Shown: in pieces, positions 12,692-32,395 of the stretch
Position numbering within the stretch: position 1 is the stretch's first letter
How the letters are laid out: each line of letters starts with the position of its first letter
UHGV virus genome: UHGV-0014568
DNA length: 37,204 nucleotides
Source of the DNA: a virus
Direction: 5' to 3' (one strand)
Notes under the pieces: generated by a model
What the model was told of the DNA's origin: nothing
Database searches by the model: none
Seen by the model: the letters and a program-made list of their open reading frames with translations, nothing else
Made by a program: the position numbers and the translations under genes

Positions 12692-12703
12692 GTGACATGT
12701 CAC
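12692..12703. repeat. 12-bp perfect palindrome GTGACATGTCAC (copy 1 of 3)
   Basis: Exact palindrome 5 nt after the stop of the plus-strand moron gene and just before its terminator. Confidence 0.8.
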
Positions 12704-12707
12704 AAAC

Positions 12708-12734
12708 AGCCAGCCTATGAGCTGGCTTTGTTTT
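12708..12734 (+). terminator. Rho-independent terminator for the tRNA/moron cassette
   Basis: 7-bp stem AGCCAGC/GCTGGCT with 6-nt loop followed by TTGTTTT. Confidence 0.6.
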
Positions 12735-12777
12735 ATCCTCACCAGAGGATATCAACGACATTATCCCCACCAGCGGA

Positions 12778-14253
12778 TTAAGCATAGGGATCGTAATCTG
12801 TAATGGCCTTGCCTTGCTGGTTCTGCTGACCTGGAATTCGCAGACGCTTCGACACAGGGAAAGCAAACGTCAGCAGTAGCGCATCGCCTTTACCCGGCGA
12901 ACGCCCAAGACGCTCTTTGATATCTTCCTTCGGTTCGATAACGATTTTACCGTCCACACGAACTTTGTACTCTGCCGCCGACAGGTCGTCTGCTGTTTCC
13001 TGGTCATCCAGTATGCCGCCCAGCCTCAGCCATGTCTTGCATGAATTGAACATCTCCCCACGCTTGTTGAGCATCTGCGGGTCAGTAGACGCGCCACCGA
13101 ACGGAACAAGTTGCCATGTACGACCCCATCCGTCACCGATTGACTTCAGACCGGTTCCGTAACCGAAGTCGATGAACACCGCGTCAGCCTGGTACTGGTC
13201 TTCAAAGTCAGCGATACGCTTCGCCATAATCAGATCGTCGGTGGTCTTGTTACCAGTCCATAGCACCTTACTGTGCAGCCCCTGCCGCAGGTATATCACC
13301 GCGTCATCAACGCCTGAGTATGCCGGGTCAACGCCGATTATCACCGGAGCATGTGCAACCTGCGCAGCGGTTACCACCCGTTTCATTGCCTCATCAGTAA
13401 GACCGGTAGGGATAAACTGCAATTCAGATGCATCAGGGAATATGCCGCGCACACGGATTTTAACGAAGTCGCTGTCTTCCCCGTAGTCATCAACCCATTT
13501 CTGCAACTGCTGTTTGTTAGTGCCTTCCACCGTCCGGCTGTCAATCTGCGCACACTTCCAGCGGTGTTTGTACTTGCGGAAACATTCACGGAAACGCCCG
13601 GTGTTACGCGTCGGGTTCCCGAACGCCACCCAGATGATTTCGGTGTCTTCGTCCGTCAGCGCACCCTCTGCTACCTCCCACACCAGATCGGCAATGTTCG
13701 ACGCTTCATCGAATACCACGATGATGCGTTTGCGCTCGTTGTGTAGTCCGGCGAATGCCTCAGTGTTGTGCTCAGACCAGGGGATTGCGTCAGCTCGCCA
13801 CCGCTTGTCGTGCCCAGGATCATTGCTGTACATCGCGGTAGCGGTACAGGTAAACCAGTCTTTCGTGATAGCAAGGTTCGACCACTTGATAATTTCCGGC
13901 CAGGTCTTCGTTCGTAGCTGGTTGTCGGTGTTGGCGGTCACCACGACCTTACAATCCTCGCAAGTGGACATGCCCCAGTTGATCAGCATTGAGATGAATG
14001 CGGATTTACCAATACCGTGACCAGAAGCGCGTGCCAGCATAAGCGGCTGATAGCGCGTCTCTGGATTCTGCAGGTGATCACGTATCTCTCGGAACGCATC
14101 AGCCTGCCACTGACGTGGGCCGGTGGCATGTGCCAGTTCAGTCCCCTCTTCCCCCCACGGGAACGCATAGAGGGCATAGCCAAGCGGATCGTGAGTGAAC
14201 CCTGCAATATCCTCGATCAACTGCTCTTCAGGAGATAACGCTGTATCTGTCAC
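12778..14253 (-). CDS. terL: Terminase large subunit
   Basis: 491-aa ORF; Walker A-like GHGIGKS near the N-terminus; overlaps terS by 4 nt; GTG start per ORF track. Confidence 0.85.
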   Translation of the reverse strand: MTDTALSPEEQLIEDIAGFTHDPLGYALYAFPWGEEGTELAHATGPRQWQADAFREIRDHLQNPETRYQPLMLARASGHGIGKSAFISMLINWGMSTCEDCKVVVTANTDNQLRTKTWPEIIKWSNLAITKDWFTCTATAMYSNDPGHDKRWRADAIPWSEHNTEAFAGLHNERKRIIVVFDEASNIADLVWEVAEGALTDEDTEIIWVAFGNPTRNTGRFRECFRKYKHRWKCAQIDSRTVEGTNKQQLQKWVDDYGEDSDFVKIRVRGIFPDASELQFIPTGLTDEAMKRVVTAAQVAHAPVIIGVDPAYSGVDDAVIYLRQGLHSKVLWTGNKTTDDLIMAKRIADFEDQYQADAVFIDFGYGTGLKSIGDGWGRTWQLVPFGGASTDPQMLNKRGEMFNSCKTWLRLGGILDDQETADDLSAAEYKVRVDGKIVIEPKEDIKERLGRSPGKGDALLLTFAFPVSKRLRIPGQQNQQGKAITDYDPYA

Positions 14254-14846
14254 TGATTACCATCCTGACGTTCTTTGAGTCGCTTCCTGGCTGCTGCTAT
14301 GCGATCAGCAATTGTCACATTCACATTAACATCCAGACGTTCTTTGAACGCGTTGACATCAACATGCTTACCAATCAGCTCAAGGTTCTTCACCTTGTCA
14401 GGCCATTTAATTTTTTTGAGGATTGTCTCTATCGAATCCTCGTTCATGTTCATGATGGTCGATGACAGATCAAAGCCACTAAGCGTAGTGCGCCAGATTT
14501 TCGGCCACTCACGGATTGGTTTAAGGCTCCCATCGTCGTTGAGGATGTCGATCACGTCCATCTGGTCGATCTCCACCAGGCGCATGAGAACGTAATCAGC
14601 ACTGACGCGCATTCGTTTGTTGCGCTCCTCCATCAACTCGGCAATCCGTTTTTGAATGCGTTCATCGCGCATCATGACACTGGCTTTAACTGCCGCTGTA
14701 TTTGGGGAGAATCCTGCGTTAATCGCTGCCTGAGTCTGGTTTTCAGGCGTTTTGATGTATGACTGGCAATAAGCCTCCTGCATTGCCGTTAGTGGCTTAA
14801 ATTGCGTTGATTTGCGTTTATAGGTTTTAGGTTCAGCAGGCATCAT
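14250..14846 (-). CDS. terS: Terminase small subunit
   Basis: Immediately upstream of and overlapping terL; ORF track starts at TTG 14924, but the in-frame ATG-ATG at 14846/14843 with a GGTGG RBS is the more likely start (about 198 aa). Confidence 0.65.
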   Translation of the reverse strand: MMPAEPKTYKRKSTQFKPLTAMQEAYCQSYIKTPENQTQAAINAGFSPNTAAVKASVMMRDERIQKRIAELMEERNKRMRVSADYVLMRLVEIDQMDVIDILNDDGSLKPIREWPKIWRTTLSGFDLSSTIMNMNEDSIETILKKIKWPDKVKNLELIGKHVDVNAFKERLDVNVNVTIADRIAAARKRLKERQDGNQ

Positions 14847-14863
14847 AACCACCGTGGTAATAG

Positions 14864-14878
14864 TTACCGTTGTGGTAA
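14864..14878. promoter_or_regulatory. TTACC-N5-GGTAA palindrome (TTACCGTTGTGGTAA) in the terS leader
   Basis: Exact operator-type palindrome 18 nt upstream of the preferred terS ATG, flanked by GTGGTAATAG direct repeats. Confidence 0.5.
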
Positions 14879-14956
14879 TAGTACCATGCAAAATAAAGCC
14901 GCCATAGTTGGCGGCAGTATTCAAAACACGTCAAATTCATCATGCATAATCTACTC

Positions 14957-14968
14957 GTGACATGTCAC
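14957..14968. repeat. 12-bp perfect palindrome GTGACATGTCAC (copy 2 of 3)
   Basis: Exact palindrome overlapping the stop of the upstream 115-aa ORF, about 110 nt upstream of the terS ATG. Confidence 0.8.
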
Positions 14969-15312
14969 ACTATTAATTTCGTTTCATGCCAGCCTTTAGT
15001 CACCCAGCATTGCGAGTCACCATTACACGGGCATGAATTAACTGGAACTCTCTCGCCGCACTTACCGCAACGTTTTCTGCTGATCGATTTTATACGCCCG
15101 CGCACACGTGCATCATCCTGGCGGATCAGCAGCGCGATGTACTCGGCCATTTCATAGGGATCGCGACCAGGGCGCCGGGCGGCGCAGTTCCGCGCCAGCA
15201 TTTCCTGCTCCTGCTTATCCAGCACCAGTTCAATTTTGCGCTCACCGGCGGCGGACTGCCGAGCGCGCTGCGCGGCTTTGCGTTCTGCGGGGGATTTAGC
15301 CACGAACCGCAC
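14965..15312 (-). CDS. Arg-rich protein with C-terminal Cys cluster, unknown function
   Basis: 115-aa ORF (GTG start); C-terminal CGKCG...CPCNG zinc-binding-like motif; start uncertain; overlaps the small ORF 15296..15418. Confidence 0.3.
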   Translation of the reverse strand: MRFVAKSPAERKAAQRARQSAAGERKIELVLDKQEQEMLARNCAARRPGRDPYEMAEYIALLIRQDDARVRGRIKSISRKRCGKCGERVPVNSCPCNGDSQCWVTKGWHETKLIV

Positions 15313-15418
15313 TCCACGCCAGATTGATTAATGACTCCCAGGTAATATAAACCCGGATACCAGCAGCCAGGCCGAAACCAATCACCATGGCATAAAGCAG
15401 AGCGTTGCACTTGTTCAT
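15296..15418 (-). CDS. Possible 40-aa single-pass membrane peptide
   Basis: ATG shares one base with the upstream stop (TGATG); hydrophobic core ALLYAMVIGFGLAAGI; below the ORF-track size cutoff; conflicts with the 115-aa ORF start. Confidence 0.25.
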   Translation of the reverse strand: MNKCNALLYAMVIGFGLAAGIRVYITWESLINLAWSAVRG

Positions 15419-15999
15419 CAGTTCACCTCCTGCGGTGGTTCCGGTAGCGGCATCCAGTGAGTTGAGCTCTCTACTTCGACGCCGTCTTTGTCCACAAAAG
15501 CCATCTTATTCCCGCCACGAGTGGGGCAAAAAACCTTATCCCAAGAACCGGGGAATACATTACCGAGATCATCGAGAAGAATCACATCGCAATATTCAGC
15601 AGGAACTGCATCACTACAGCTTATCCAGCCAGCCGGAGTTACCGGAGGGGTACCCGATAGCGCATTCTGCTCCAGTGATGCTTTTACAAACCACGCTGCC
15701 TGAACTATTACGCCATGAATCCAGCGCAAATCAGCATCGCGATCGTTCTTTTTCATCTTTTCACCACTTAAAGCCTGGCTTATGTGGCTGCATACTAGGT
15801 TTTCATGTAATTCCTTCGCATCCTCAATGGTGAAACCACCAGGTAAACGCCCCGGAGTTACCGGAGAGTTGCCAGCCTTGCGCATGGCAATTTCCACGAT
15901 TTCAACCATATCTTCTGGTGGAATTTTACAATGCTGGCCAATATGCCTCTGCTGTCTGGCATACTCGAGGATGTGCTCCAGCTTGGTTCGATTAATCAT
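15418..15999 (-). CDS. DUF551-like phage protein
   Basis: 193-aa ORF; C-terminal GWISCSDAVPAEYCDVILLDDLGN...THWMPLPEPP matches my recollection of the DUF551 pattern. Confidence 0.45.
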   Translation of the reverse strand: MINRTKLEHILEYARQQRHIGQHCKIPPEDMVEIVEIAMRKAGNSPVTPGRLPGGFTIEDAKELHENLVCSHISQALSGEKMKKNDRDADLRWIHGVIVQAAWFVKASLEQNALSGTPPVTPAGWISCSDAVPAEYCDVILLDDLGNVFPGSWDKVFCPTRGGNKMAFVDKDGVEVESSTHWMPLPEPPQEVN

Positions 16000-16442
16000 G
16001 ATTTATCTCCCTTAAGCATGGCGGCGCGGCAGGCTTCATCAACCATAGCTTCTACGTTTTCGAGAAGTACGTAACTGTACTGCTGCCCGCTAACCCATTC
16101 TTTTCTGCGAGGTAATGCGCGTGGGTCCGCTACAATGGCTCGCAAACGTTCCAGAACAGCTGGTACTGCTGGCGCTGGCGTGGCAGTGTATAGCGCCGTT
16201 GTACCCATCGGCTTATGATTGCATTTCGGGCAAACGTCGTTCTCTCGCCAGTCCTCAATTGTTTCCCACCCGCAGCGACAACATTCGTAACTGATGTAGT
16301 CAGGTTCTGCCTCCAGCGATGCCAGAGCAATCCGTGCCAGCTCTTCCGCTTCTTCTGCTGGCAGTACAACGTTGCTACCAGGTCCGTATGTTTCGCGCCA
16401 CTGCTTGATTGTCAGCAGTCGCTCTTTGGTAATAGTGTTCAT
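15996..16442 (-). CDS. Zinc-ribbon protein, unknown function
   Basis: 148-aa ORF with CCRCG...CPKCNH motif; 4-nt overlaps with both neighbours. Confidence 0.4.
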   Translation of the reverse strand: MNTITKERLLTIKQWRETYGPGSNVVLPAEEAEELARIALASLEAEPDYISYECCRCGWETIEDWRENDVCPKCNHKPMGTTALYTATPAPAVPAVLERLRAIVADPRALPRRKEWVSGQQYSYVLLENVEAMVDEACRAAMLKGDKS

Positions 16443-16804
16443 GCCGTAGCCCCTTCTTGATATTTTTCAAACCAGAACACAACCGGGTCAGATTTCATTT
16501 CAACCAATCCCATACGAACCAGCGCCTTGCCTTTCCCGGACGCAAGGAATTCACGACGACCATCACTGATAATTCGCCGATAATCTTCCAGGCTACTGCA
16601 ATGCTTGTGCAGATTGCATGGGTGGCATGCCGGAACCATGTTGGATATATCGTCACGATCCTGGTGAAGCATATTTCCATCAAAACGAATGACCGGTTTT
16701 ACATGGTCTGCATGCCACTTTTCGCCAAGTTCGCAGCCGCAATAAGCGCAGCGACCACCAAACTTCATGCGCAGCTCTGCACGTTGTTTTTTCGTCAGTG
16801 CCAT
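16439..16804 (-). CDS. HNH endonuclease
   Basis: CAYCGCEL...HADHVKP...CHPCNLHKH motif set; ATG at 16804 with AAGGAAAG RBS preferred over the longer track ORF (start 16894). Confidence 0.7.
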   Translation of the reverse strand: MALTKKQRAELRMKFGGRCAYCGCELGEKWHADHVKPVIRFDGNMLHQDRDDISNMVPACHPCNLHKHCSSLEDYRRIISDGRREFLASGKGKALVRMGLVEMKSDPVVFWFEKYQEGATA

Positions 16805-16805
16805 A

Positions 16806-17024
16806 TCAGCTTTCCTTATATGGATTAATTTTATTGTGCAGTGTGTTGAACGGGGCCCATACCACGTCGTTATACAATTCAATAACTGGCTCAATTATTT
16901 TCCCGATTGCCCAGACAAAAATTAGCAGGGATATCGGTATCATCAACACGACAAACAGAATGAGAAACAGAAATTCTACAGCCCTGTTTTTTCGCGGATA
17001 TTTTTTTCTGAATAATGTGACCAT
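16806..17024 (-). CDS. Small single-pass membrane protein
   Basis: 72-aa ORF; basic N-terminus followed by hydrophobic stretch LFLILFVVLMIPISLLIFVWAIG. Confidence 0.35.
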   Translation of the reverse strand: MVTLFRKKYPRKNRAVEFLFLILFVVLMIPISLLIFVWAIGKIIEPVIELYNDVVWAPFNTLHNKINPYKES

Positions 17025-17157
17025 TCATTACCGCCCTTCCGGGCGGCCTCCTGATGTTCTGAGGGTACAGAAATCCCTCCGGTTAAGGATTTAATAAAAA
17101 TCACTTCTGATTTAAATTTTCAGTGTTTTGTTGTCATGTGGTTTATCGCCTTTATGC

Positions 17158-17463
17158 TTAAGCCTTATTTCTCAGCCATACACAAACAGGACCATCTTCA
17201 GTGTCATGAATGGAACCAATGAACCAGCCTTCACCTTCCGGGCGCTCCGGTTTCCAGGAGGCAATATCGGGACCATCCGCGTCCAGATTAAAATCATCTT
17301 CATCCATAGTTCTGATGGTCCATTGAAGATTATTTTCCTCCATCCATGCGTTAAACTCTTCCGTTGAAATAAGTTCTCTAGCATCACAGAATTTTTCATA
17401 TTCAGGATGCGTCCAGCAGCCATATTCATCACGTACTACTGGTATTTCTCTAATTTCATTCAT
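17158..17463 (-). CDS. Hypothetical acidic protein
   Basis: 101-aa ORF in the nin-like block; overlaps the upstream gene. Confidence 0.4.
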   Translation of the reverse strand: MNEIREIPVVRDEYGCWTHPEYEKFCDARELISTEEFNAWMEENNLQWTIRTMDEDDFNLDADGPDIASWKPERPEGEGWFIGSIHDTEDGPVCVWLRNKA

Positions 17464-17713
17464 TTCTGTTCCTCCACGTTTTCAGACTTTCACCACAGAA
17501 CGGGCAAAAACACATTGCAACACCACGACCGATATATTGGCCGGAGTGAATTTGAGCAATGTCTAAGCCTGGCTCGCCGGTGTTTATATTCACGCGTTCC
17601 GGGATAAATATGCCTTTACTCTTAAAGGTTGGATTTCCATATTCGAGAGATTTTGCCAAAGCCGCGCACGGTTCTATCTTGTTGCCATTAATTTGGCATT
17701 TTGACTCACTCAC
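17456..17713 (-). CDS. Hypothetical Cys-containing small protein
   Basis: 85-aa ORF with CFCPFCGE motif. Confidence 0.4.
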   Translation of the reverse strand: MSESKCQINGNKIEPCAALAKSLEYGNPTFKSKGIFIPERVNINTGEPGLDIAQIHSGQYIGRGVAMCFCPFCGESLKTWRNRNE

Positions 17714-18288
17714 TGGTTGCCTCCTTTGCGAAGCTGGGCGGCGAATTTCTGTGCCTCTTTCTGGATGAATAGCTTTTTGCTGAAGTTATGGTACTGACCG
17801 AACATCTCCACGCCCTGCGCCCGCAGTTCCGACAGGAAAGCGTCGGTGGCTGGGTGCTCTGTCTGGCTATGCATTGCCCATTCAGATAAGTACTCGAAGC
17901 AACGGCGAAACTCCTGCCAATCACTGCACATGTTTAGGTTTCCGCCTTCACACTCGAACTGGTAATTCTCTAAACGGTCTGCAAACGCTCTGCCATTCTC
18001 GATGGCACCAAGTGGAGTTTCAGACTTCAGCCAAGCATTCTCCGCAGCCAGCGCCGAAAACTTCTCGTGTGCCAACTTAACAGCCGCATCAGCCTGCTTA
18101 ATTGACTCAATCGCTTTCTGGTGGTCTTCGGCCAGCGCATTAGCACGCACCAGTTGCACTTCCAGTTGCGTTGCCAAATCGCTGATCAGCTTTGCCACAC
18201 TGCGCATATCAACGGCACCACATTCTGCTTTCAGTTCCGAAGCCATCTCATGCCCGGCGGAAACTAACCCTTTGATATTACTTTCCAT
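17710..18288 (-). CDS. Hypothetical helical protein
   Basis: 192-aa ORF with a helical, coiled-coil-like N-half; no recognised motif. Confidence 0.4.
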   Translation of the reverse strand: MESNIKGLVSAGHEMASELKAECGAVDMRSVAKLISDLATQLEVQLVRANALAEDHQKAIESIKQADAAVKLAHEKFSALAAENAWLKSETPLGAIENGRAFADRLENYQFECEGGNLNMCSDWQEFRRCFEYLSEWAMHSQTEHPATDAFLSELRAQGVEMFGQYHNFSKKLFIQKEAQKFAAQLRKGGNQ

Positions 18289-18349
18289 CTTTACCCTCGC
18301 TTATCCACATAACTTATTGATTACATTGATAACTAAAAAGATCGTCGAT

Positions 18350-18694: not shown

Positions 18695-18697
18695 GAT

Positions 18698-18774
18698 TTA
18701 CCCCTAAGGTAATTAAAAACCACATAAGACACGAAATCAATAGATTTTAGAATATTTTATTACCTAACAGGTAA
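18698..18774. promoter_or_regulatory. Intergenic control region with two TTACC-N5-GGTAA palindromes
   Basis: TTACCCCTAAGGTAA (18698-18712) and TTACCTAACAGGTAA (18760-18774) flank an IHF-like AATCAATAGATTT and an AACCACATA motif, between the P-like gene and the nin-like genes. Confidence 0.5.
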
Positions 18775-18794
18775 TTATCGAAACGTAAAAAAAT

Positions 18795-18810
18795 GCGCTA
18801 TCGCGCTGGT
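18795..18810 (-). terminator. Weak terminator-like hairpin plus 7-U run after the P-like gene
   Basis: On the minus strand GCGC-GATA-GCGC followed by TTTTTTT; stem is only 4 bp. Confidence 0.3.
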
Positions 18811-18811
18811 A

Positions 18812-19612
18812 TTACTTGATAAATCCTGACGCCTTTCCCCGCCTGTATTCCTCCATCAGCCACTGCGCCGGTGTTATTCCCCCCAGGGTGGCGGCGTTAG
18901 GCATACACCCGAAACTTCGCCCTGGTGGATGGTAAACGTCTCTCCCTGTGTCCGGAGGCGTACTCATGGGTTCTGGCTTTGCCTGTATGCTGATCACCGG
19001 ATCGGGTATCTGCTGTCCGGAAGCCACCTTTTTCGCCCAATCATCGAGCAGCCTGCGCGCGTGTTTCTCAACCTCAATCTCGCTAAGCTGGCGCTGATAC
19101 ATTGCACGGCGGGTATCACATACGACCCAGTACATAACCGGATGCCGCCACGGGAATCTTTCGGGACCACCAGGATATAAACTTTTTTCCTTGCTGTACC
19201 GGTGAAACTCCGTCATCACATCGTCAATGGTGACGCCAAGAACCATCTTGCTGTCTTTGCACCACTTGATGAATTGCCCTGGCGACGGCCAGAACGGAGA
19301 ATCACTGGCGCGGGCGTGGCGCATACCAGCAGAAACCTGTTCACGGGTTCGGATCCCCCCTTCGGCAAACGCAGCAATCCACTGCTGTTTTGCAGCAACT
19401 TCCTGCTCTGGCGTCTTCAGGTTGGTTACCACTGCCGCCGGAAACAGTTGTTTCAACTGTTTGAAAAGGGCATCAACAAGCCTCTCTGCTGACATGTTCA
19501 CTACGTTGTCATTGTTGGTGTACTGATGCTCATAACCTGACATGCGAGAAAGGGCCTCTCCGTCACGGTTTTGTATTGCGGTAAAAACGTTGTTCACAAG
19601 AAATCCTCCCAT
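18812..19612 (-). CDS. Replication protein P-like helicase loader
   Basis: 266-aa ORF; segment QWIAAFAEGGIRTREQVSAGMRHARASDSPFWPSPGQFIKWCKD parallels lambda P (QWVLAFRENGITTMEQVNAGMRVARRQNRPFLPSPGQFVAWCRE) from memory. Confidence 0.7.
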   Translation of the reverse strand: MGGFLVNNVFTAIQNRDGEALSRMSGYEHQYTNNDNVVNMSAERLVDALFKQLKQLFPAAVVTNLKTPEQEVAAKQQWIAAFAEGGIRTREQVSAGMRHARASDSPFWPSPGQFIKWCKDSKMVLGVTIDDVMTEFHRYSKEKSLYPGGPERFPWRHPVMYWVVCDTRRAMYQRQLSEIEVEKHARRLLDDWAKKVASGQQIPDPVISIQAKPEPMSTPPDTGRDVYHPPGRSFGCMPNAATLGGITPAQWLMEEYRRGKASGFIK

Positions 19613-20457
19613 GCTTCAGGGCTGTTCCAGTGCGGAACGTTGTTATCAGGTAATGTTGATTGCTTCTGTCTGCTAATCTGCAGCCGCCTTGCCAGCTTCT
19701 GCTCCCACTGTGCCTGATGGTATGCCTTACCCTCAGCCATCCAGTAAATTCTGAACTCTGCAAGTTCCTGTGCCGTTGGCAGACTGTCCAGGTAGATCCC
19801 CTGCAATGAGCTTTTCCGAAGAAAGTCATCTGATGGCTGCCATTGTTCATGCATGACAAATTTGCCTAATTGCCCTGGCCCACCAGGAGGAACAAAGTTA
19901 TTCATCACGGCGTTGTTTGCGCCGGGGTCATGAGGCACAGAATTCCCGTTTTTTGTCCTGCTCTCCCTCTCTTGGTTAAATGACTGGTTATATGACTGGT
20001 TCTGGATCCCGTTTTTGGGATCATTCAACATCCCGTTTTTGGGATCATTCAACATCCCGTTTTTGGGATCATTCAACATCCCGTTTTTGGGATCATTCAA
20101 CATCCCGTTTTTGGGTATATTCCCGTTTTCGGTAACATTACCGTTTTCGGGTTCATTACCCCCTTCCCGGTTGCCTTTAATGTTCCCGTTTTTGGTTATA
20201 TTAAGAGAGAAAACCCGCACTCTTTTCGTCGCTCCCTTTCTCTCTCCGGTATCTGAAATAAGCCCCATTTTCATGAGCGATATAAGCCCGGCCTGCACGG
20301 TTTTTTTATTCAGGCAAGTGTCTTTAACGAGGCGTTCTATGCTGGGGTAGCAGAGGTTATATTCATCGGCTCTGTCAGCCATCGAGAGCAGTATGAGCTT
20401 TAATGATGAGCTGCCTGGATCTGTCTCCCAAGCCCAATCTGTTGCATGTCTGCTCAT
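19594..20457 (-). CDS. Replication initiator (O-like position) with DnaT-like C-terminal domain and internal iteron-encoded repeats
   Basis: 287-aa ORF; C-terminal GKFVMHEQWQPSDDF...YWMAEGKAYHQAQWEQKLARRLQ resembles E. coli DnaT; contains GMLNDPKN x4 encoded by the 24-bp iterons; GGAG RBS. Confidence 0.65.
   Translation of the reverse strand: MSRHATDWAWETDPGSSSLKLILLSMADRADEYNLCYPSIERLVKDTCLNKKTVQAGLISLMKMGLISDTGERKGATKRVRVFSLNITKNGNIKGNREGGNEPENGNVTENGNIPKNGMLNDPKNGMLNDPKNGMLNDPKNGMLNDPKNGIQNQSYNQSFNQERESRTKNGNSVPHDPGANNAVMNNFVPPGGPGQLGKFVMHEQWQPSDDFLRKSSLQGIYLDSLPTAQELAEFRIYWMAEGKAYHQAQWEQKLARRLQISRQKQSTLPDNNVPHWNSPEAWEDFL
20006..20101. repeat. Four perfect tandem 24-bp direct repeats (ATCCCGTTTTTGGGATCATTCAAC), probable replication-origin iterons
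   Basis: Exact head-to-tail copies at 20006, 20030, 20054 and 20078, followed by degenerate CCCGTTTT(C/T)GG copies to about 20215 and preceded by a TGACTGGTT x2 repeat; all inside the replication initiator gene. Confidence 0.7.
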
Positions 20458-20472
20458 GATTAATCTCCGCTA

Positions 20473-21054: not shown

Positions 21055-21091
21055 AGCTATTGCCTGATATTTATTTCAGATAATAAATATT

Positions 21092-21185
21092 CACCCATAA
21101 GGTAACAAAAATCAAGGATAGTTACCTATGGGGTGCATTTACCTGTTGGGTAATATTGCTTTAAATTGAATCATCTACTGATTCA
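21092..21185. promoter_or_regulatory. OR-like divergent operator/promoter region
   Basis: Inverted pair CACCCATAAGGTAAC (21092-21106) and GTTACCTATGGGGTG (21121-21135), exact TTACCTGTTGGGTAA (21139-21153), and a separate perfect palindrome TGAATCA-N5-TGATTCA (21167-21185). Confidence 0.6.
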
Positions 21186-21208
21186 TATATGAGGCGATTT
21201 TCCAGAAA

Positions 21209-21793
21209 ATGAAAAGTATCCAGGACGTCCGCAGGCAAAATCTCAACGACTTGATCGACCGTGAATTCAATGGTGTTCAGACGCGGATGGCAGAAAAACT
21301 TGGAACTCAGGCAAATCTGGTAAACCGCTGGGCTCTTGGCAAGAAGGTTATCGGCGACCAGGTTGCGCGAAAAATTGAAGCTGCCGCCAATAAACCCCGT
21401 AACTGGCTTGATATCGATCGCTCGCTTTCTCAAGAAGGTTTTCAGCCTGTCGGACCAAGCGACATTGGTCAGCTGGCGGCTCACAACCTGGAACGCTGGA
21501 TGAGCGAAAGCCGAGACCTTTCAACGCAGGGAAAACTTCACCGCGCATCCGGCGTCGCCCAGGTGACAATCAGCCGCCTGTTAAACAATGAGGTCAGCGT
21601 TTCCATTTCCACCCTGGAGAATGTTGCATCCGCATTCGGGCGTCACGGCTATGAATTACTGATTCACCCGCACGACCCTGCGACTATCAACTATGATCGC
21701 TCGCGCTACGCATTGTTACCTGAAACAGAGAAGGCAAAGATCGAAAGTTACATTGAATTTGTCATCAACCAGAACGAAAAAAGCAAACAATAA
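21209..21793 (+). CDS. Prophage repressor candidate (CI position) with two XRE-type HTH domains and no peptidase domain
   Basis: 194-aa ORF between the OR-like and OL-like regions, with its own terminator; two HTH-like segments (QTRMAEKLGTQANLVNRW and GVAQVTISRLLNNE); no Ser/Lys S24 autopeptidase motifs seen. Confidence 0.5.
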   Translation: MKSIQDVRRQNLNDLIDREFNGVQTRMAEKLGTQANLVNRWALGKKVIGDQVARKIEAAANKPRNWLDIDRSLSQEGFQPVGPSDIGQLAAHNLERWMSESRDLSTQGKLHRASGVAQVTISRLLNNEVSVSISTLENVASAFGRHGYELLIHPHDPATINYDRSRYALLPETEKAKIESYIEFVINQNEKSKQ

Positions 21794-21815
21794 AACTATA
21801 GTTTTCAGAAAGTAA

Positions 21816-21837
21816 GCCGCCTCATGGCGGCTTTTTT
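21816..21837 (+). terminator. Rho-independent terminator after the repressor gene
   Basis: GCCGCC-TCAT-GGCGGC followed by TTTTTT. Confidence 0.7.
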
Positions 21838-21850
21838 ATTGCCCATGAAA

Positions 21851-21927
21851 TTACCTTACGGGTAATTTTTTTAACTCATATCTATTGACAACAAACCAAA
21901 TACGCATAATTATTACCTAAACGGTAA
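21851..21927 (+). promoter_or_regulatory. OL/PL-like promoter with two TTACC-N5-GGTAA operators
   Basis: TTACCTTACGGGTAA (21851-21865), -35 TTGACA (21885-21890), CATAAT-like -10 region and TTACCTAAACGGTAA (21913-21927) just before the first gene of the plus-strand operon. Confidence 0.55.
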
Positions 21928-25698: not shown

Positions 25699-25701
25699 AC
25701 G

Positions 25702-26952
25702 TTATTCCCCCGCCATCCACTTCTCAAACTTCGACGGGGAGAACGGAATCAGATCCGTATGCTCCCCGTTAATCCAGGAATCAATCATATCGGCCCACTG
25801 CTGCAACATGTAGGCGCGCTGTCTGGCATATTCCGCTTTGTTATATACGGCGCGCACACCTTTCTGCTCATGTGCCAGAGCCTTTTCAATCCAGTCTGAA
25901 GGATAACCAGCCTCATGCAACAACGTACTGGCTGTACGGCGCATATCATGTACAGTGAAGTCCTGAATATGCTCACCATCTTCATTTATTATTTTCACCG
26001 TTCTGTCGATCAGAGAGTTCAGCGCGGCATTAGATAATGGCTTCCGGAAGTTGTAACGACCAGGAACCAGATATTCACTTCCACCAGCGCACATCTGCAA
26101 CCCGACCAATATATCCTGTGCCTGTTTAGGCAGGTAAATAACGTGCGCCCGGCTTCCCTTCATGCGGTCTGAAGGAATTGTCCATGTCCATTTTTTAAAA
26201 TCTATTTCGTCCCACGTTGCATTGGTGAATTCGCCTTTACGAACCATAGTGATAAGCACCAGTTTTAAAGCCATTTTCATAGTGCCCATAGCACCAATGG
26301 CATCCAACGTGCGGAAGAACAGGCCAATTTCTTCTGGTGTCAGTGTTCGCTCTCGTGGTTTAAATATGGCGATAGACGAAGGCTTAATGTCAGCCGCAGG
26401 ATTAAACAAACCATGACCACGGTCATTGGCGTGACGGTATACGCTGCTGATGATCTCCCTGGCCTGCACTGCTGTTGCCCGGCCACCGCGTTCGACAATC
26501 CGGTCACACAAATCACGAACCATCGATGTGGTAATTTCAGCCATCATTTTGTTGCCAAGAACCGGAAGTATGTCACGGTCGATCACTGCCTGCTTCATTG
26601 CGCGGGTACTTTCAGCCATGATGACGTGTTTCATATAACTGTCGGTATGTACCGCAAACGTCTCGGCACCACGAATCTTTTTGATACCGTCACGTTTAGC
26701 CGCAGCCGGCGACTGGCCTGCTTTAAGCAGCTTCTTTGCAGCAATCAGTTCTTCCCGCGCTTCTGCCAGGCTTATACCGTCACGCCCATACTGCCCGATT
26801 ACCAGTGTTTCGCGGCGACCGTTGATACGGTAGTCATAGCGAAACGAGACCGTACCTGACGTAAGCACAGCTACATACAGCCCGTCACGATCGGAGACTT
26901 TGTACAGTTTGTCCTGCGGCTTGAGGTTTTTCAATTTTGTATCGGTAAGCAC
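25702..26952 (-). CDS. int: Tyrosine integrase, P4-like family
   Basis: 416-aa ORF; N-terminus LTDTKLKNLKPQDKLYKVSDRDGLYV typical of P4-type integrases; C-terminal catalytic region with HDMRRT and Y-containing tail; GTG start. Confidence 0.85.
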   Translation of the reverse strand: MLTDTKLKNLKPQDKLYKVSDRDGLYVAVLTSGTVSFRYDYRINGRRETLVIGQYGRDGISLAEAREELIAAKKLLKAGQSPAAAKRDGIKKIRGAETFAVHTDSYMKHVIMAESTRAMKQAVIDRDILPVLGNKMMAEITTSMVRDLCDRIVERGGRATAVQAREIISSVYRHANDRGHGLFNPAADIKPSSIAIFKPRERTLTPEEIGLFFRTLDAIGAMGTMKMALKLVLITMVRKGEFTNATWDEIDFKKWTWTIPSDRMKGSRAHVIYLPKQAQDILVGLQMCAGGSEYLVPGRYNFRKPLSNAALNSLIDRTVKIINEDGEHIQDFTVHDMRRTASTLLHEAGYPSDWIEKALAHEQKGVRAVYNKAEYARQRAYMLQQWADMIDSWINGEHTDLIPFSPSKFEKWMAGE

Positions 26953-27269
26953 AATTCACCCGTATAGAAACCATTTTCATGACGGTATGAGAGTATACCT
27001 TTCGGGTAATACCGTCACCTATACCGTCGAAAAATGTGGTGTAGAGTGAATAGATATGAGTAGATATAAACAAAAACCCTCTGCAATTACAGAGGGTTAG
27101 GGAAGACATTGAATAGATATGATGTGCTATGAACTAGCTATACATCATTCCCACTCAATTATTTACGAAAGCCATAACCAATTGAGTGATAACATTTTTC
27201 CAAAACCTCATTTTTTTAGTACCGTTTTATATACCGTCACCGGAAATCAGTACCATGAAAAATGCCATG
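26953..27269. other. Candidate attP region with arm-type repeats
   Basis: TACCGTC core four times (26981-26987 inverted, 27010-27016, 27022-28, 27232-27238), (T)GAATAGATATGA twice (27048-27059, 27111-27122), in the gap between int and Rz. Confidence 0.35.
27064..27098 (-). terminator. Rho-independent terminator ending the lysis/late transcript
   Basis: 9-bp perfect stem AACCCTCTG/CAGAGGGTT with 6-nt loop, followed on the minus strand by TTTTTGTTTAT. Confidence 0.65.
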
Positions 27270-27752
27270 CTATCTTGTCAGGGTGTCATACTGTTTTTCG
27301 CAGACTCTTCCGGCTTCGGCTGCCCGGTCAGCATACTCTGCCAGTTGTCTGTTTCTCTCGAGAGATTTGCTGAGCACGTCGGCAAGCAAAACTCCGGTGT
27401 CTGCGGCTGACGTCCCAGCGCCGACAATGGCGTTATACTGCCTGAGCTGCTCACGGATGGCAAAGAGTTGTTGCTGCAACCTGCCAGCGCGAACGGCAGC
27501 ATCAAGAGCATCATTGCGCGCCTGGTCGATCCTCTGCTGAGCTTCACGTTCATTGGTCGCTTTCTCCCGTTCGTACTGCTTACGAATTCTCTCATCTTCA
27601 GCTTTGCGGTCTTCCTTAGCCTGCGCATACCCGGCGTCGTACTGACGACTGCCGTGTGCATTCCAGGCTACAACTCCTGATATTACCAGAACAGCAAGCA
27701 TCACCATGATAACCAACTGTTTCCAGTATGCTTTTGCGAATGCCCAGATCAT
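27270..27752 (-). CDS. Rz-like inner-membrane spanin
   Basis: 160-aa ORF overlapping the endolysin stop; N-terminal TM ([18 protein letters not shown]) then charged coiled-coil region. Confidence 0.6.
27278..27514 (-). CDS. Rz1-like outer-membrane lipoprotein spanin embedded in the +1 frame of Rz
   Basis: Signal peptide with lipobox ([13 protein letters not shown]), Pro-rich mature part; wholly inside the Rz gene. Confidence 0.5.
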   Translation of the reverse strand: MMLLMLPFALAGCSNNSLPSVSSSGSITPLSALGRQPQTPEFCLPTCSANLSRETDNWQSMLTGQPKPEESAKNSMTP

Positions 27753-28378
27753 ACCGCCAGCACCTTACTGGCAGTGATGTACCGCGCGCGCCGGTCGTCG
27801 ATGCCGTTCCGGCCACCATTGATAATCAGAGTTACACGTGCAATATCGCCGGTATACTTCATGCAACCTTTGCTGGAGAAGAACCACGCCGCGCTACGAG
27901 CCGCGTATTCGTCCTGCGCCAGCAGTTCAGGATTCTCCAGCAAGTCCACTTTCAAGCCGTTTCCGCAGTCACGATAGTTATTCAAACCGGTAATCTGGAT
28001 AAGTCCGCGACCTCGGTAATTCCAGCCATCACCAGGGGCATTGTTCCCCATGCGTTTGCTGTACACCAGATTGGCGATCGCTCTCTGGCGCTCAAGTGGC
28101 AACAGCGGTTCGCCTACGCGTCGCCCCAATGCGTTAGCCTGTCCCTGGGTGAGACGCCCAGCCCGAACGAAGTTAGCCAGTCCGGTGACGCTGTAGTTGA
28201 AATTTTCCTGCAACCGGGTGAAGCCCACAGACTCATGCCCGACCTGAGCAATAAACATTGCCTGATCTTCGGGTTTGCTTATTCCAAACTCTTTCATCGC
28301 TGAAGTTATATGCGAGAACCAGCGTGCAGCCAGTGCCTCGCTAATACCAGCAGCTCGCTGGAATTGTTTAATCTCCAT
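27749..28378 (-). CDS. Endolysin, glycoside hydrolase family 19-like
   Basis: 209-aa ORF with GAGG RBS; [16 protein letters not shown] motif typical of GH19-type lysins; no N-terminal signal-anchor. Confidence 0.7.
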
Positions 28379-28676
28379 ATTTAGACCTCGTTATTTTGAA
28401 AATCTGAACGACGTTACCGCGCGTTTTAATAACCGCAGCAAGCATGACAGCGTTGATAATGACCTCAGATAAATCCACAACCATTGGCGTGCGTAACCAG
28501 ATTGCATAAACAACACGAACAGGGATACTGGCCGCTGCAACAATCAGGAAATAAGCAAGCCACCCACCCCATCTCCTGTGTTGAGAACCGTTTCTCCGAA
28601 ATGTGGCAACTCGAACTGCTATACCGGCGCAAATAGCCGCATTGGTGATAAGCAAAAAAAGCTCATGAGTTACCAT
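28368..28676 (-). CDS. Holin (three predicted TM segments)
   Basis: 102-aa ORF immediately upstream of and overlapping the endolysin; three hydrophobic stretches; GGAG RBS. Confidence 0.5.
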
Positions 28677-29067
28677 CGTCTTTTCTCCCCGGAATTAACT
28701 CGCGTGGATTATCGGAACGGTGATAGAGCCAGATTCCAATTCGCACTGCGACGATTGCTGACACAAATGCACCGGCAGAGAAAACAATCCCTTTCTCGAA
28801 AGAATCCTGTGTGATTGTAGGGATCAGGCTGGCTATGCCGATAAGAATTGATGCTGCTGGTTTGTAGAATAGAAGTCCGCATAGAAAGCTAAGCATCGAC
28901 AAAAGCACGCGACGACGAATTGGATACTCTACCGCAGAGGTAACAAAAATTACCGCCCCAGACAAAGACCCCAAAGCAACCTCAGGAGGAACACCGGCCA
29001 CAACCGCAATAAAAGAACTAACACTAAGCCACTGATTTAAAGACTCACTTGTTAGTTGAACTGACAT
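28663..29067 (-). CDS. Multi-pass membrane protein of the lysis cassette (second holin or antiholin candidate)
   Basis: 133 aa from ATG 29067 with GGTGG RBS (track's longer ORF starts at 29157); several hydrophobic segments; overlaps the holin start. Confidence 0.4.
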   Translation of the reverse strand: MSVQLTSESLNQWLSVSSFIAVVAGVPPEVALGSLSGAVIFVTSAVEYPIRRRVLLSMLSFLCGLLFYKPAASILIGIASLIPTITQDSFEKGIVFSAGAFVSAIVAVRIGIWLYHRSDNPRELIPGRKDDGNS

Positions 29068-29168
29068 AAAAACCACCGTTTCATGTGCATGAAGAACCCA
29101 CTTATTTGTGAGTTCATCATACACAATAAACCATATGTGGTTAAACCATAAAGACAACTATCTTGTCT

Positions 29169-31907
29169 TTATTGGATAATATGGAACGAATTTTTAACAT
29201 GAATAGTAGCAGAATTATTACTATTATTAATTAAAGCGATCTTCCCGCCAGAATATCCGGGAACAGCCTGTTGAACAGTTCCGCCAGTAGTGGGTTTAAC
29301 TGTTATTGTAGGTACTGACCCTGCCAGGCCAGCTGTAAGCTTGACCTCACCTGTCACATCGCAAGTCAATGTGCCGACAACAGTAAGAGCGCCGAAAAGC
29401 ATTGTTGAAATCTCAATTCCAGTTGAAGTTCTCTTTGCAACAACTCCGCTTTGTGAAGTAGGTTTATAGTAAAAAATCACTCCACAGCCAACAGGAATTG
29501 ATGATAAAGCAACGTTTTGAACATTTGGTGATTTAGTTGCACCATACATATCAGGAGATTCATCATTAGCAGTTTCTGCCGCATACGACAATAACAAATC
29601 AGCTCTATCCCTTACCTGCCCATATACTCCTTTTATTGCATTTTCAGCAAGATACACTGAAGCGCTTTGCGAGCATGACTCTTTCAAATCTCCTCTAAAC
29701 AACAGCCCTGGTGGATATACTTTTGATGGCGTACCATCGTAAATAATCTCAATCTGATTAAGTCCTTTTTTAAGGGTTCCAAGGTGAGTGGTTAGTTTGT
29801 TTGTAAACGATGAGACGCCATTACTAGCGATATTACCAGAACTAAATGCTGTATTACGGATATCTTGTTGTCGGATAGAGATGGAGTTAGCGCGACCGTT
29901 TGCAACATATGTTGGGTTATACGGCTCAAAAACAACCAATGATATATCAGAAGTTTCACACCAGACAAAATATCGTATGGTTAAATTTTCAGTAGCTGGG
30001 TAAACCACGCCCCAGCCAGTTAGACCATTTAGATACGTGTCTCCACTCAACCGCTCCATACCAACGCTGTACGTGCTACCAGACGGGAAGCCAAATGGCT
30101 GGATATCATTATCAACTGTTGGTACGAAGTTATTCCCTTTTTTCGCAGTGTGGACTCTATACGGCATAACAGCCTTTGCTGCATATGCGCCGATATATTG
30201 ATGGCCCAGAGGAGCAAAATGCGTGCTATCAAAAGTGCCATCTGTCGGGCGCCGAGCAATATCTTCAAGCGTATAGCTTCCGAGGTCTCTGTACATCTCG
30301 GTTACTGGCTGAGAGAGATCGAGGAACTCTACCGCAGGGAACAGGCGTTCAATATGCTTCTTAATTGATGCTTCGAGAGCCGCCCATTGTGAGCCATTCT
30401 GGTTCATTGAAACAACGCAGACGGCACATCCGTAACCCCATGCTTTACGGATAAACTGCTCAAAACGGAATAAATACTGATCGAACCCTAACGTATCAAG
30501 TTGTCCGTTATCGTTAACGCCCATGGATATGAAGCAAACGTCTGGCGGCACGTTTCCGTATGCAGTGTTTTTGAAGAAGCCATGGTCAAAGTTACGATTC
30601 GCCCACCCGTCAATGAGTCGCTTTCCAGAAGATGCGCAGTTTTCAGCCTTAAATATGTAAGCACTATTTTTAGTAAATCGGTTAAGCCAGTCGGTAAATG
30701 TGCGAAACCAAGAACCTGAACCACCATTACTATTGTGATCGTAGTTAGTTGAAGATAGGTCACCATTAGAATCGGTTGGATTAGCTGACCATCCAGCACC
30801 GTATGCGCCGTCAGTGATTGAATCACCAACGATACCAACACGACATAGCGTATTGCGGCGAGCGAACTGGTTTATTACGTTGAATGCAGTGTATTTACTG
30901 CCATGAGTTGCCAATCCAACATCAAATATGTGCTCATTCCCCCATGGATCTCTGGTGAGAATTTTTCCTTCACCGATAAATTTTGTCACATCATCATCTG
31001 GCAGGAAATTGCAGCGTAGCTGAACATCCTTCGGAACATAAATTTGTCCAGTATAAGCGTATACTGCAGCGCGGTTATCTGTCTCGCTATCAATGACTAC
31101 CCCAGGAACATATTTCACGGCTAATGCATCATTGCGATATTTACCGTTGCTTAGCTCTGTCCTTAATACAGCATCACCTACACCTATCCATGCCCCTGGA
31201 CCAACACCACCAGTAGTGGTAGGAGTTGATCCAGGCGGAACTACTTTGGGCAGTGGCCCATCCCATCTGTAGTATTCGCCGTTGCTTTCCCAGAGAAGAA
31301 CATCGTTAAGATAGATGATGGTATTACCCAACTCAAAAGATTTCTTCGTGTTATAGCCATACAATCCATTTTCTAAGGTTTCAATAATGGTGCTAAGTAT
31401 GGTACTAAATTTTGCATAAAGATCATCAGTATATTTTTTTGTAGCAGCATCTTGGGGAAGAGATGGATCACGAAGATTTCTAATATAATTTGAAAGCGCG
31501 TCATAAAAAATTGCTACGTCATTTGGCTTTCTTAAAGCCAACTTATCATTTCTTAATGATTGTTGAATGAGCATAGTAAGTTTATCAAACGCATCCTCAT
31601 GTACCTCAGCGAAGAACTTACCCTGATTACGTAAATCCGTTTCCTGAGTAGCTGGTAGTTCTCGTGATATAGATATCTGATGACCGTTAGCCAACGCCTT
31701 CGAGAGAATTACATTACCGCCGTTGTACCCTCCCGCTCCGGTGACGATGTAATCTGTATCAAGAACCAGTACGTTTATATTCTCGCTAATGTCAACAACC
31801 TGTACTACCAGATCTGATTTTTTGAAGATCCTAAATTTGTAAGGGAATGTCGTCGTAACACCATTGCCAGTGTATTCGTTGTGGTTAACTTCGGTTGAGA
31901 CCGTCAT
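29169..31907 (-). CDS. Tailspike/tail fibre with T7-type N-terminal attachment domain and SGNH (GDSL) esterase domain
   Basis: About 912 aa from ATG 31907 with GGAGA RBS (track ORF starts at 31949); N-terminus VNHNEYTGNGVTTTFPYKF resembles podovirus fibre N-terminal domains; SGNH blocks GDSITDG (Ser codon at 30819-30821), GVNDNG and DSTHF. Confidence 0.7.
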   Translation of the reverse strand: MTVSTEVNHNEYTGNGVTTTFPYKFRIFKKSDLVVQVVDISENINVLVLDTDYIVTGAGGYNGGNVILSKALANGHQISISRELPATQETDLRNQGKFFAEVHEDAFDKLTMLIQQSLRNDKLALRKPNDVAIFYDALSNYIRNLRDPSLPQDAATKKYTDDLYAKFSTILSTIIETLENGLYGYNTKKSFELGNTIIYLNDVLLWESNGEYYRWDGPLPKVVPPGSTPTTTGGVGPGAWIGVGDAVLRTELSNGKYRNDALAVKYVPGVVIDSETDNRAAVYAYTGQIYVPKDVQLRCNFLPDDDVTKFIGEGKILTRDPWGNEHIFDVGLATHGSKYTAFNVINQFARRNTLCRVGIVGDSITDGAYGAGWSANPTDSNGDLSSTNYDHNSNGGSGSWFRTFTDWLNRFTKNSAYIFKAENCASSGKRLIDGWANRNFDHGFFKNTAYGNVPPDVCFISMGVNDNGQLDTLGFDQYLFRFEQFIRKAWGYGCAVCVVSMNQNGSQWAALEASIKKHIERLFPAVEFLDLSQPVTEMYRDLGSYTLEDIARRPTDGTFDSTHFAPLGHQYIGAYAAKAVMPYRVHTAKKGNNFVPTVDNDIQPFGFPSGSTYSVGMERLSGDTYLNGLTGWGVVYPATENLTIRYFVWCETSDISLVVFEPYNPTYVANGRANSISIRQQDIRNTAFSSGNIASNGVSSFTNKLTTHLGTLKKGLNQIEIIYDGTPSKVYPPGLLFRGDLKESCSQSASVYLAENAIKGVYGQVRDRADLLLSYAAETANDESPDMYGATKSPNVQNVALSSIPVGCGVIFYYKPTSQSGVVAKRTSTGIEISTMLFGALTVVGTLTCDVTGEVKLTAGLAGSVPTITVKPTTGGTVQQAVPGYSGGKIALINNSNNSATIHVKNSFHIIQ

Positions 31908-31961
31908 GTTAAATCTCCAGATAGTCGCAGCACCCGTTGCGCCGCACATCCGGTCATTCTA

Positions 31962-32026
31962 TTACCTGAAAAACCACATATGGATAGATAACCCATAAAT
32001 ACGAACAGATATCACCTTTCAGGTAA
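31962..32026. promoter_or_regulatory. Long-range inverted repeat TTACCTGAAA ... TTTCAGGTAA with AACCACATATG motif between tailspike and the LexA-box gene
   Basis: Half-sites at 31962-31971 and 32017-32026 are exact reverse complements, 45 bp apart; AACCACATATG at 31972-31982. Confidence 0.4.
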
Positions 32027-32063
32027 TTCGCAAAACGTGCTGGATAGCAAACAAATTATTTGA

Positions 32064-32083
32064 TACTGTATAAATATACAGTT
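32064..32083 (+). promoter_or_regulatory. LexA (SOS) box overlapping a promoter
   Basis: TACTGTATAAATATACAGTT is a near-match to the LexA consensus TACTGTATATATATACAGTA; TTGATA -35-like hexamer at 32060-32065; 20 nt upstream of the ATG at 32103. Confidence 0.7.
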
Positions 32084-32102
32084 ATTGCATGGAGAAGATA
32101 AG

Positions 32103-32360
32103 ATGCAGCAGTATCACTATCCACTGGAAGACGGATTTACCGAAAGGATTCACACGCCGGGAGGCGTCAGGTCACTGGTGGAGGGATCGCACTTGATGAA
32201 ATTACTCCGGGATCTCGATAAGGATGGATTTAATGTCGATGGCCCACTTGCCGAACTGACTGCACTGATTAACTACGTCACCAGCTCACAGATGTCTATG
32301 CAGGATCTGCAAACACATCTCGACTATTGTGCCGAACAATTGCGAAAACAAACCACATAA
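32103..32360 (+). CDS. Small SOS-regulated protein, candidate antirepressor
   Basis: 85 aa from ATG 32103 with GGAGAAG RBS (track's TTG start at 32085 is less likely); opposite orientation to the flanking virion genes; no family recognised. Confidence 0.5.
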   Translation: MQQYHYPLEDGFTERIHTPGGVRSLVEGSHLMKLLRDLDKDGFNVDGPLAELTALINYVTSSQMSMQDLQTHLDYCAEQLRKQTT

Positions 32361-32382
32361 AGAAAAGGCCGCGAAAGCGGCC
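32351..32382 (-). terminator. Terminator-like hairpin GGCCGC-GAAA-GCGGCC with minus-strand U-rich tail
   Basis: Perfect 6-bp GC stem at 32367-32382; TTTTCTTTATG follows on the minus strand (end of internal-virion-protein transcript); no T-run on the plus side. Confidence 0.45.
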
Positions 32383-32383
32383 T

Positions 32384-32395
32384 GTGACATGTCAC
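32384..32395. repeat. 12-bp perfect palindrome GTGACATGTCAC (copy 3 of 3)
   Basis: Exact palindrome abutting the GC hairpin between two convergent genes. Confidence 0.8.

Follow-up and report, generated by a model that had tools for sequence, protein, structure and literature searches.

UHGV virus genome UHGV-0014568, a stretch of 37,204 bases that was analysed whole and that we call the window, carries three copies of a perfect 12-bp palindrome, GTGACATGTCAC, one of which overlaps the stop codon of a gene for a protein of 112 amino acids (aa), and the relationship between this palindrome and that gene is the subject of the present analysis. BLAST comparison placed the window in the epsilon15/phiV10 group (Uetakevirus), with identities of 92-97% to the E. 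coli phages phiV10, HEMP4 and PAS61 and of about 80% to the Salmonella phages epsilon15 and SPN1S; its late genes lie on the minus strand and it contains one tRNA-Arg. Since a gp15-like virion gene runs off both ends (1-2447 and 36832-37204), the window is probably a whole, circularly permuted genome. An earlier note on this DNA had reported three identical copies of the palindrome in a shared extended context, and scanning the whole window returned exactly these three, at 12692-12703, 14957-14968 and 32384-32395, all exact, and no further copy at zero or one mismatch; the common context is a 14-mer, CGTGACATGTCACA, read on the plus strand at 12692 and 14957 and on the minus strand at 32384. 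A given 12-mer is expected 0.002 times in the window (37204/4^12), in agreement with the claim that three copies are improbable by chance, and among its nine distinct 12-bp palindromes GTGACATGTCAC alone recurs. The relaxed form GTGACNNGTCAC (GTGAC-NN-GTCAC) with up to one mismatch has four matches, compared with 0.84 in shuffled sequence. Repetition by itself is not unique, as three more sequences of 12-13 nt, none of them palindromic, also occur thrice, namely TGATATTTTTCAA (3183, 16458, 24584), GAGCGATCGCCA (6589, 28072, 34108) and GAATAGATATGA (20769, 27048, 27111); GAATAGATATGA, two copies of which fall between int and Rz (attP region), is a possible integrase arm site. We refer to the palindromes as copies a, b and c; the features around them, including open reading frames (ORFs), are as follows.

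14957..14968: copy a of the palindrome, overlapping the TGA stop codon (14965-14967, minus strand) of a gp49-family gene
14965..15303, minus strand: gene of the 112-aa protein, with a predicted ribbon-helix-helix (RHH) fold and four cysteines (Cys4), the proposed binder of the palindrome
14890..14915, minus strand: intrinsic terminator, GCCGCCAACTATGGCGGC plus TTTATTTT, 41 nucleotides (nt) downstream of copy a and upstream of terS
14846..14878: two TTACC-N5-GGTAA sites, in type like the epsilon15 'repressor' operator, immediately ahead of the terS start
12778..14843, minus strand: terS-terL unit (terS 14250-14843, terL 12778-14253), flanked by copies a and b
12708..12735: terminator hairpin, AGCCAGCC-TATGAG-CTGGCT, 4 nt from copy b
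12692..12703: copy b, between the terL terminator hairpin and the stop codon of a convergent plus-strand gp66-like moron
12331..12687, plus strand: convergent moron ORF, Pfam Phage_gp49_66 (N4 gp49 / Sf6 gene 66 family)
32403..32543, minus strand: small membrane-protein gene in the position of phiV10 p21 / epsilon15 gp18, its stop codon 7 nt before copy c
32384..32395: copy c, with the membrane-protein gene's stop codon on one side and a terminator hairpin on the other
32358..32383, minus strand: intrinsic terminator, AGGCCGCTTTCGCGGCCT plus TTTCTTTA, directly after copy c and lacking a T-run on the plus strand
32064-32082 and 32103-32360, plus strand: LexA-box-like TACTGTATAAATATACAGT followed by an 85-aa ant-like ORF, convergent on copy c

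The junctions are those that the earlier note had named, namely upstream of terS, at the moron/tRNA cassette after terL and at the end of the virion block. Copy a marks the end of the early-right operon, and the 115-codon ORF seen there at first (the 115-aa Cys-cluster ORF) is likely to represent a gene of 112 aa. Copies b and c mark the ends of the terS-terL and gp3-gp18 units, and at both of them convergent morons meet late genes. The moron ORF, whose cassette of moron and tRNA genes lies on the plus strand, stops 4 nt ahead of copy b, and the hairpin on the far side of this copy has its T-run on the plus strand, the minus strand offering merely CTGTTT. At copy c, the membrane-protein gene closes the gp3-gp18 virion block (gp17/gp18 end). 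Copies b and c adjoin terminator hairpins, and another hairpin of this kind follows copy a.

The earlier note had made its proposal depend on conservation at these junctions in related phages, and such conservation was found. In epsilon15, SPN1S, Enterobacter phage Tyrion and HEMP4, all three of the corresponding junctions carry the perfect 12-mer; in phiV10, two copies are perfect and a third, with one mismatch, spans the ends of the record; and Klebsiella phages retain copies a and c. The hosts concerned are E. coli, Salmonella, Enterobacter and Klebsiella. Across the collected unique contexts as a whole, conservation is 99-100% in the palindrome versus 40-76% in the 40-nt flanks. Most of the 83 unique homologous contexts of copy a share the register G-TGA-CATGTCAC; at copy b (21 unique contexts) the palindrome is 100% and the right flank 53% conserved, and at copy c (8 unique contexts) the corresponding values are 100% and, for the flanks, 61-69%. 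The DNA beyond copy b is occupied by at least five unrelated convergent genes, each of which stops 4-5 nt from the palindrome. A degenerate fourth copy was seen over the TGA stop codon of the Rz gene in epsilon15 (GTGACATGGCAT, 26618) and SPN1S (GTGACATGTCAT, 26722), its register matching that at the gp49-family stop; in the window, where this gene ends in TAG (GATAGCATGGCAT), the Rz copy has been lost.

A pairing of the motif with one gene became apparent on scanning IMG/VR with the 14-mer. Genes for homologues as distant as about 49% identity to the 112-aa protein have the palindrome at their ends, and the pairing of stop codon and palindrome persists where the neighbouring terminase genes are unrelated or absent. 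Many 14-mer matches in IMG/VR lie inside coding sequences; these were regarded as chance or inherited occurrences and dismissed as sampling effects. Using tblastn against a phage collection, we found the protein family in N15 (gp46), phiKO2, P2-like Yersinia phages and about 85 Vibrio phages. We then surveyed 71 loci (1.29 Mb), one genome per GTDB species, chosen solely for encoding the protein; because an alignment of all subfamilies was too diverse, the profile was built from a narrower one, and the N15 and Vibrio subfamilies are under-sampled as a result. These loci contain 86 GTGAC-NN-GTCAC sites against 1.2 expected, and the 59 other permutations of the half-site gave a maximum of 7 and a median of 1 in the same sequences. 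A site lies within -15 to +30 of the stop codon in about 54 of the 71 loci, most commonly in the register G-TGA. Where the gene ends in TAA or ends earlier, the site is shifted 5-26 nt downstream and not lost, which argues that it is not a by-product of coding.

The same pairing was found in phages outside the epsilon15/phiV10 group. In N15, GTGACTGGTCAC overlaps the gp46 stop codon and two more copies are present, all three of which phiKO2 has at the same positions; one of them is internal to repA, where the 12-mer is invariant and the adjacent codons differ. A P2-like Yersinia phage has GTGACGCGTCAC over the stop codon of its homologue, Citrobacter phage Omnitron also shows the pair, and Vibrio phage K233 contains three GTGAC-NN-GTCAC sites versus 0.035 expected, one of which precedes the terS start by 19 nt. 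The pair spans podo-, sipho- and myovirus backgrounds. What follows the stop-proximal site varies and includes terS, an HNH-like ORF, three kinds of excisionase, a umuD-like gene with its own LexA-box promoter, and others; in P2/186-like prophages of Xenorhabdus, the site lies near the end of a CII-like gene. In prophages of Pantoea, Erwinia and Serratia type (loci L141, L148, L149, L172, L186, L190, L191), a hairpin CCYG-(A/T)TGCRG-CRGG stands about 10-12 nt after the palindrome and before excisionase-like genes, its stem showing the compensatory changes CCTG/CAGG, CCCG/CGGG and GCCCG/CGGGC. The exact 12-mer was also seen inside two unrelated families of Q-like antiterminator genes of lambdoid prophages, at the start (MRDMSQ...) or at a Cys-rich motif (SVTCHSC) (loci L012, L017, L022, L115, L124 and L059, L061, L067, L069, L078, L114, respectively), where it is probably inherited chance.

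The protein encoded upstream of copy a belongs to the family of epsilon15 gp49, phiV10 p55 and N15 gp46 (PHROG 536, 'transcriptional regulator'), a small one of about 220 clusters (50% identity) in a set of 1.84 billion representatives. Neither the single sequence nor the profile had a significant match in Pfam, NCBIfam or the PDB sequences. An AlphaFold model of the protein matches RHH DNA-binding domains, including those of the RHH relaxosome accessory proteins TraM and TraY, and a fold search of BFVD returned just a fragment of the same protein. Two hallmarks of the Arc/MetJ/CopG superfamily, the strand-helix-helix order in the predicted fold and a dyad-symmetric site associated with the gene, are both present. 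In the family alignment, a basic stretch near the N-terminus is conserved (AERKAAQRxRQ); also seen are a strand-like segment that varies and two helices with four conserved cysteines after them. The best overall score to the family profile was obtained by a predicted protein of 7287 aa, P0159, which is matched in six separate stretches and may be a gene-calling artefact or a repeat protein. Among four candidate binders put forward in the earlier note, the Cys-cluster protein is the one singled out by the comparative evidence; the others are not.

On the strength of these comparisons, we consider it reasonably probable that GTGACATGTCAC is an operator of the phage's own RHH/Cys4 protein, through which transcription across the boundaries of units is controlled. 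The former idea of a late-regulator site is thus supported as far as a phage regulator's binding site is concerned, given that the motif travels with the gene and the protein is modelled as RHH; its 'late' character is not established. A symmetric dimer would read two GTGAC half-sites 2 bp apart, the invariant half-sites being contacted by conserved parts of the protein (the basic N-terminal helix and the Cys4 module) and the variable beta-ribbon being placed over the variable central dinucleotide. If the ribbon lies over the dyad centre, the dinucleotide would be expected to change with the strand subfamily, and the observed co-variation is suggestive in this respect: proteins with the strand K-L/I-E-L-x-L-D mostly go with AT, those with EIRARLE with GC and those with RRDWVLE with TG. 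The bound protein could act as a roadblock or insulator that limits read-through from the early operon and across convergent junctions, and it might limit its own synthesis through a truncated, stop-less mRNA. The sites lie in the path of the polymerase at unit boundaries and at no fixed distance from promoters, which points to control of boundary-crossing transcription, and their constant feature would be that the polymerase leaves a unit there. In at least four lineages (N15, the Vibrio phage and two others), a distance of 9-19 nt separates the site from the start codon that follows, too short for a promoter, and placement either there, just ahead of a ribosome-binding site, or next to terminators fits an elongation block.

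An operator at the stop codon of its regulator's own gene has a precedent in the lac system, where O3 overlaps the end of lacI and the polymerase is stopped before the stop codon; Abo et al. reportedly found in 2000 that binding of LacI to O3 leads to truncated lacI mRNA and to SsrA tagging. Unlike the phage site, whose most conserved location across the family is the stop codon, O3 serves as an auxiliary operator in a promoter-proximal system. The operators of Arc and Mnt of P22, on the other hand, overlap the promoters that are repressed, while the sites described here are at 3' ends of genes and by terminators; the phage protein moreover has an extra basic N-terminal helix and a Cys4 region, and no sequence similarity to Arc or Mnt was found. 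An RHH protein with a palindrome is a familiar kind of pair, and this particular one is previously undescribed, its unusual traits being the placement at gene ends and the wide spread in temperate phages of Enterobacterales and Vibrio. The 12-mer was not found in any paper, and the literature on N15 gp46, epsilon15 gp49 and SPC32H does not address it (the epsilon15 genome paper was not covered).

Several observations speak against this proposal. About 17 of the 71 survey loci have no site at the stop codon, and 7 have none within 10 kb. Sites also occur within genes, namely a gp13-like gene of a Klebsiella phage, Omnitron and N15 repA. Intrinsic terminators already exist at copies b and c, which would make an added block partly redundant, and the roadblock is a step that we infer, as we do binding, the geometry of the dimer and the direction of the transcriptional effect; no binding experiment for any family member was found in the literature. 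The co-variation rests on three subfamilies, and within the AT group CT, AC, AG and GT variants occur without a change in the beta-strand. Finally, one N15 site lies upstream of a promoter-like -35 hexamer and would also suit an ordinary activator or repressor role. This site of N15 and phiKO2 is 24 nt upstream of the element TTGACG-18-TAGAGT (28550 in L126, 6784 in L129), which precedes a hairpin, a terminator and the anti-repressor (ant) operon, and the protein may regulate the anti-immunity region in these phages.

The gene is the last of the early-right operon and directly upstream of terS, and the palindrome could serve as a loading or activation site for a late activator or Q-like antiterminator, a reading that we regard as rather unlikely. 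Copy a would then belong to a late promoter with GTGACA as its -35 hexamer, followed by a terminator and terS in parallel to lambda Q-QBE-pR'-tR', and copies b and c would re-engage the polymerase further along. Lambda Q resembles the present case in that the regulator gene is directly upstream of the site, the Q gene likewise adjoining its own site, with a terminator and packaging or late genes beyond; in the window the site also overlaps a promoter-like -35. No Q or Ogr homolog can be recognised in the epsilon15 group, the window's GTGACA-18-CATGAT reaches a score of 9/12, epsilon15, SPN1S and Tyrion have GTGACA-17-TAAATT, a terminator is found 24-47 nt further on in three diverged lineages, and the site is just upstream of terS in the Vibrio phage as well. 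Against this, of 67 unique stop-site contexts just 12 offer a -10-like hexamer 16-18 nt away, and counted by independent context type the figure is 3 of about 30, close to the 5% of control sites; over the 67 contexts tested, a promoter role of the site came out near background. The geometry of promoter and terminator before late genes is seen in the window, epsilon15 and the L138 type, most other lineages lacking it. Furthermore, the pair coexists with separate late regulators in N15/phiKO2 and the P2-like phages (Q-like gp40 and Ogr, respectively), the downstream genes are often not late, as with the excisionases and the umuD-like gene, and copies b and c are upstream of no co-oriented gene and not at promoters, copy b coming after the terL terminator and not before it. 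There are three sites where lambda has one, and the protein is no member of the Q family, having no Pfam, NCBIfam or PDB sequence match of any kind and an RHH fold in its model. An activator or Q-like role is possible in the epsilon15 group. At all three junctions, conserved DNA also gives way to variable DNA exactly at the palindrome, as the unrelated genes stopping next to copy b and the changing content downstream of copy a illustrate, and gene and site form a unit that is present in phages of very different backbone; together with the TraM and TraY fold matches, this could indicate a point of moron exchange (a site-specific or homing target, or short shared homology) with the protein as accessory factor. 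We think this quite improbable, since no recombinase or nuclease domain was found in the protein, each variable region has one palindrome and lacks a second boundary, the conserved intragenic sites in N15/phiKO2 repA and the Klebsiella gp13-like gene are not cassette borders, and a selected binding site amid neutral DNA would yield the same pattern with no role in recombination.

Each site can further be read, on one strand, as a stop codon followed by the palindrome and a terminator hairpin with T-run, the stop codon belonging to the gp49-family gene (copy a), the moron (copy b) or the membrane-protein gene (copy c). This order would suit an RNA signal in the 3' untranslated region that acts in processing, stability or protein binding, for which we see a very slim chance. 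The isolated 12-mer folds at -1.2 kcal/mol, no better than shuffles, and in its three contexts it pairs with three different partners, results which also make the RNA processing signal once suggested unlikely and led us to reject the palindrome as an intrinsic terminator, the terminators being separate adjacent hairpins. A perfect loopless dyad is, rather, the signature of a site in double-stranded DNA, Rfam gave no match at the palindrome, and the N15 sites inside repA and upstream of the promoter-like element are unfit for such a role. Of the other functions that had been considered for the palindrome, a packaging-related site is unlikely, the pair being present in cos phages (N15, P2-like) and beside unrelated downstream genes, and a nuclease target found no support, as the associated protein has no nuclease domain. 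The hosts of pair-carrying phages are almost all Enterobacterales, Vibrio and Aeromonas, which is roughly the host range of MatP, and the GTGAC/GTCAC half-sites are those of matS, GTGAC[AG]N[TC]GTCAC. The 12-mer equals the E. coli consensus matS GTGACATTGTCAC less one central base (PMC3603311, PMC8669397), and it agrees with the SlmA consensus GTGAGTACTCAC in the four outermost bases of either half (PMC3020112). A host-factor site, of matS or SlmA-binding type, by which phage DNA engages or hides from proteins that organise the host chromosome, is nevertheless most improbable in our view. The spacing is 2 bp and not 3 in 86 of 87 survey sites, giving a 12-bp site with two central bases where matS has 13 bp with three; no 13-bp version exists in the window even at one mismatch, and true matS is avoided by prophages (PMC3603311). 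The motif follows the phage gene and not the host, and its central bases vary with the protein subfamily inside one host order; one locus comes from a Pseudomonas assembly, which is weak evidence, the assembly being possibly contaminated. Agreement with the SlmA consensus is limited to the outer GTGA/TCAC, the central four bases (CATG) differing from the GTAC of that site at all four positions. Vibrio phage K233 does have one true 13-bp matS-consensus site, GTGACACCGTCAC (19491), which lies over the TGA stop of gene 0027 beside the three 12-bp sites. MatP, too, is an RHH protein, and the gp49/gp46 family might be a phage-borne relative or mimic of the MatP-matS system that bridges sites or competes with MatP, something that we hold to be highly doubtful. 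In contrast to the phage protein, MatP lacks a Cys4 module and contains a four-helix bundle and a coiled coil; comparing MatP with the family profile by hhalign gave a probability of 0.1% (with an approximate MatP query), and matS organises a chromosome domain (the Ter macrodomain), whereas the phage sites are at ends of genes and operons. Were mimicry nonetheless true, bridged sites would fold or insulate the phage chromosome, for instance by looping out the terS-terL/pac region between copies a and b, or else the protein would contend with MatP for host DNA in the infected cell; with the spacing offset by one base, the phage sites would go unseen by MatP, in keeping with the avoidance of matS by prophages. 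The identity of the half-sites to those of matS is either coincidence or a lead to phage interference with host chromosome organisation.

Returning to the operator at unit ends, its interest lies in the fact that the epsilon15/phiV10 group includes serotype-converting and O157-typing phages in which the separation and timing of transcription units are undescribed, and one protein-site pair is now nominated for this task. As the pair also exists in N15-type telomere phages, P2-like phages and Vibrio phages, the assignment would bring annotation to hundreds of prophages, for the motif as well as for a hypothetical protein. Boundaries that depend on the protein would amount to a compact and portable transcription insulator and would explain why morons are tolerated at exactly these junctions.

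The unit boundaries of the window have a second regular feature. In epsilon15 and in the window, each late unit is headed by a repressor-type operator, ATTACC-N5-GGTAAT, and in the window the units preceding these operator-headed units end with the palindrome. TTACC-N5-GGTAA, annotated as the repressor operator in epsilon15, has 13 matches in the window versus 0.5 expected (at 11719, 14846, 14864, 18698, 18760, 21091-21927 and 32012); besides those in the immunity region, there are matches immediately ahead of terS, of the gp3/portal unit and of the tailspike, which suggests direct repressor control of each late unit. The longest terS ORF would begin at a TTG at 14924, the start annotated in phiV10, and overlaps the terminator hairpin; an ATG start at 14843, giving an epsilon15-like MPAEP, is more plausible and likely to be the real one, judging by comparison with epsilon15. 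The 85-aa ant-like ORF that converges on copy c is assigned to PHROG 450 and matches the anti-repressor family phrog_1760 more weakly, and its counterpart is annotated as an anti-repressor in related phages. TACTGTATAAATATACAGT, some 20 nt ahead of this ORF, is a near-consensus LexA box, and the arrangement suggests SOS-controlled induction through an antirepressor embedded in the late region. Away from the three junctions, a 24-bp unit, ATCCCGTTTTTGGGATCATTCAACATCCCG..., is repeated head-to-tail four to five times at 20006-20125, with a sixth, partial match at 20184; these repeats lie inside a minus-strand ORF (19594-20457) and are probably the iterons of a replication origin.

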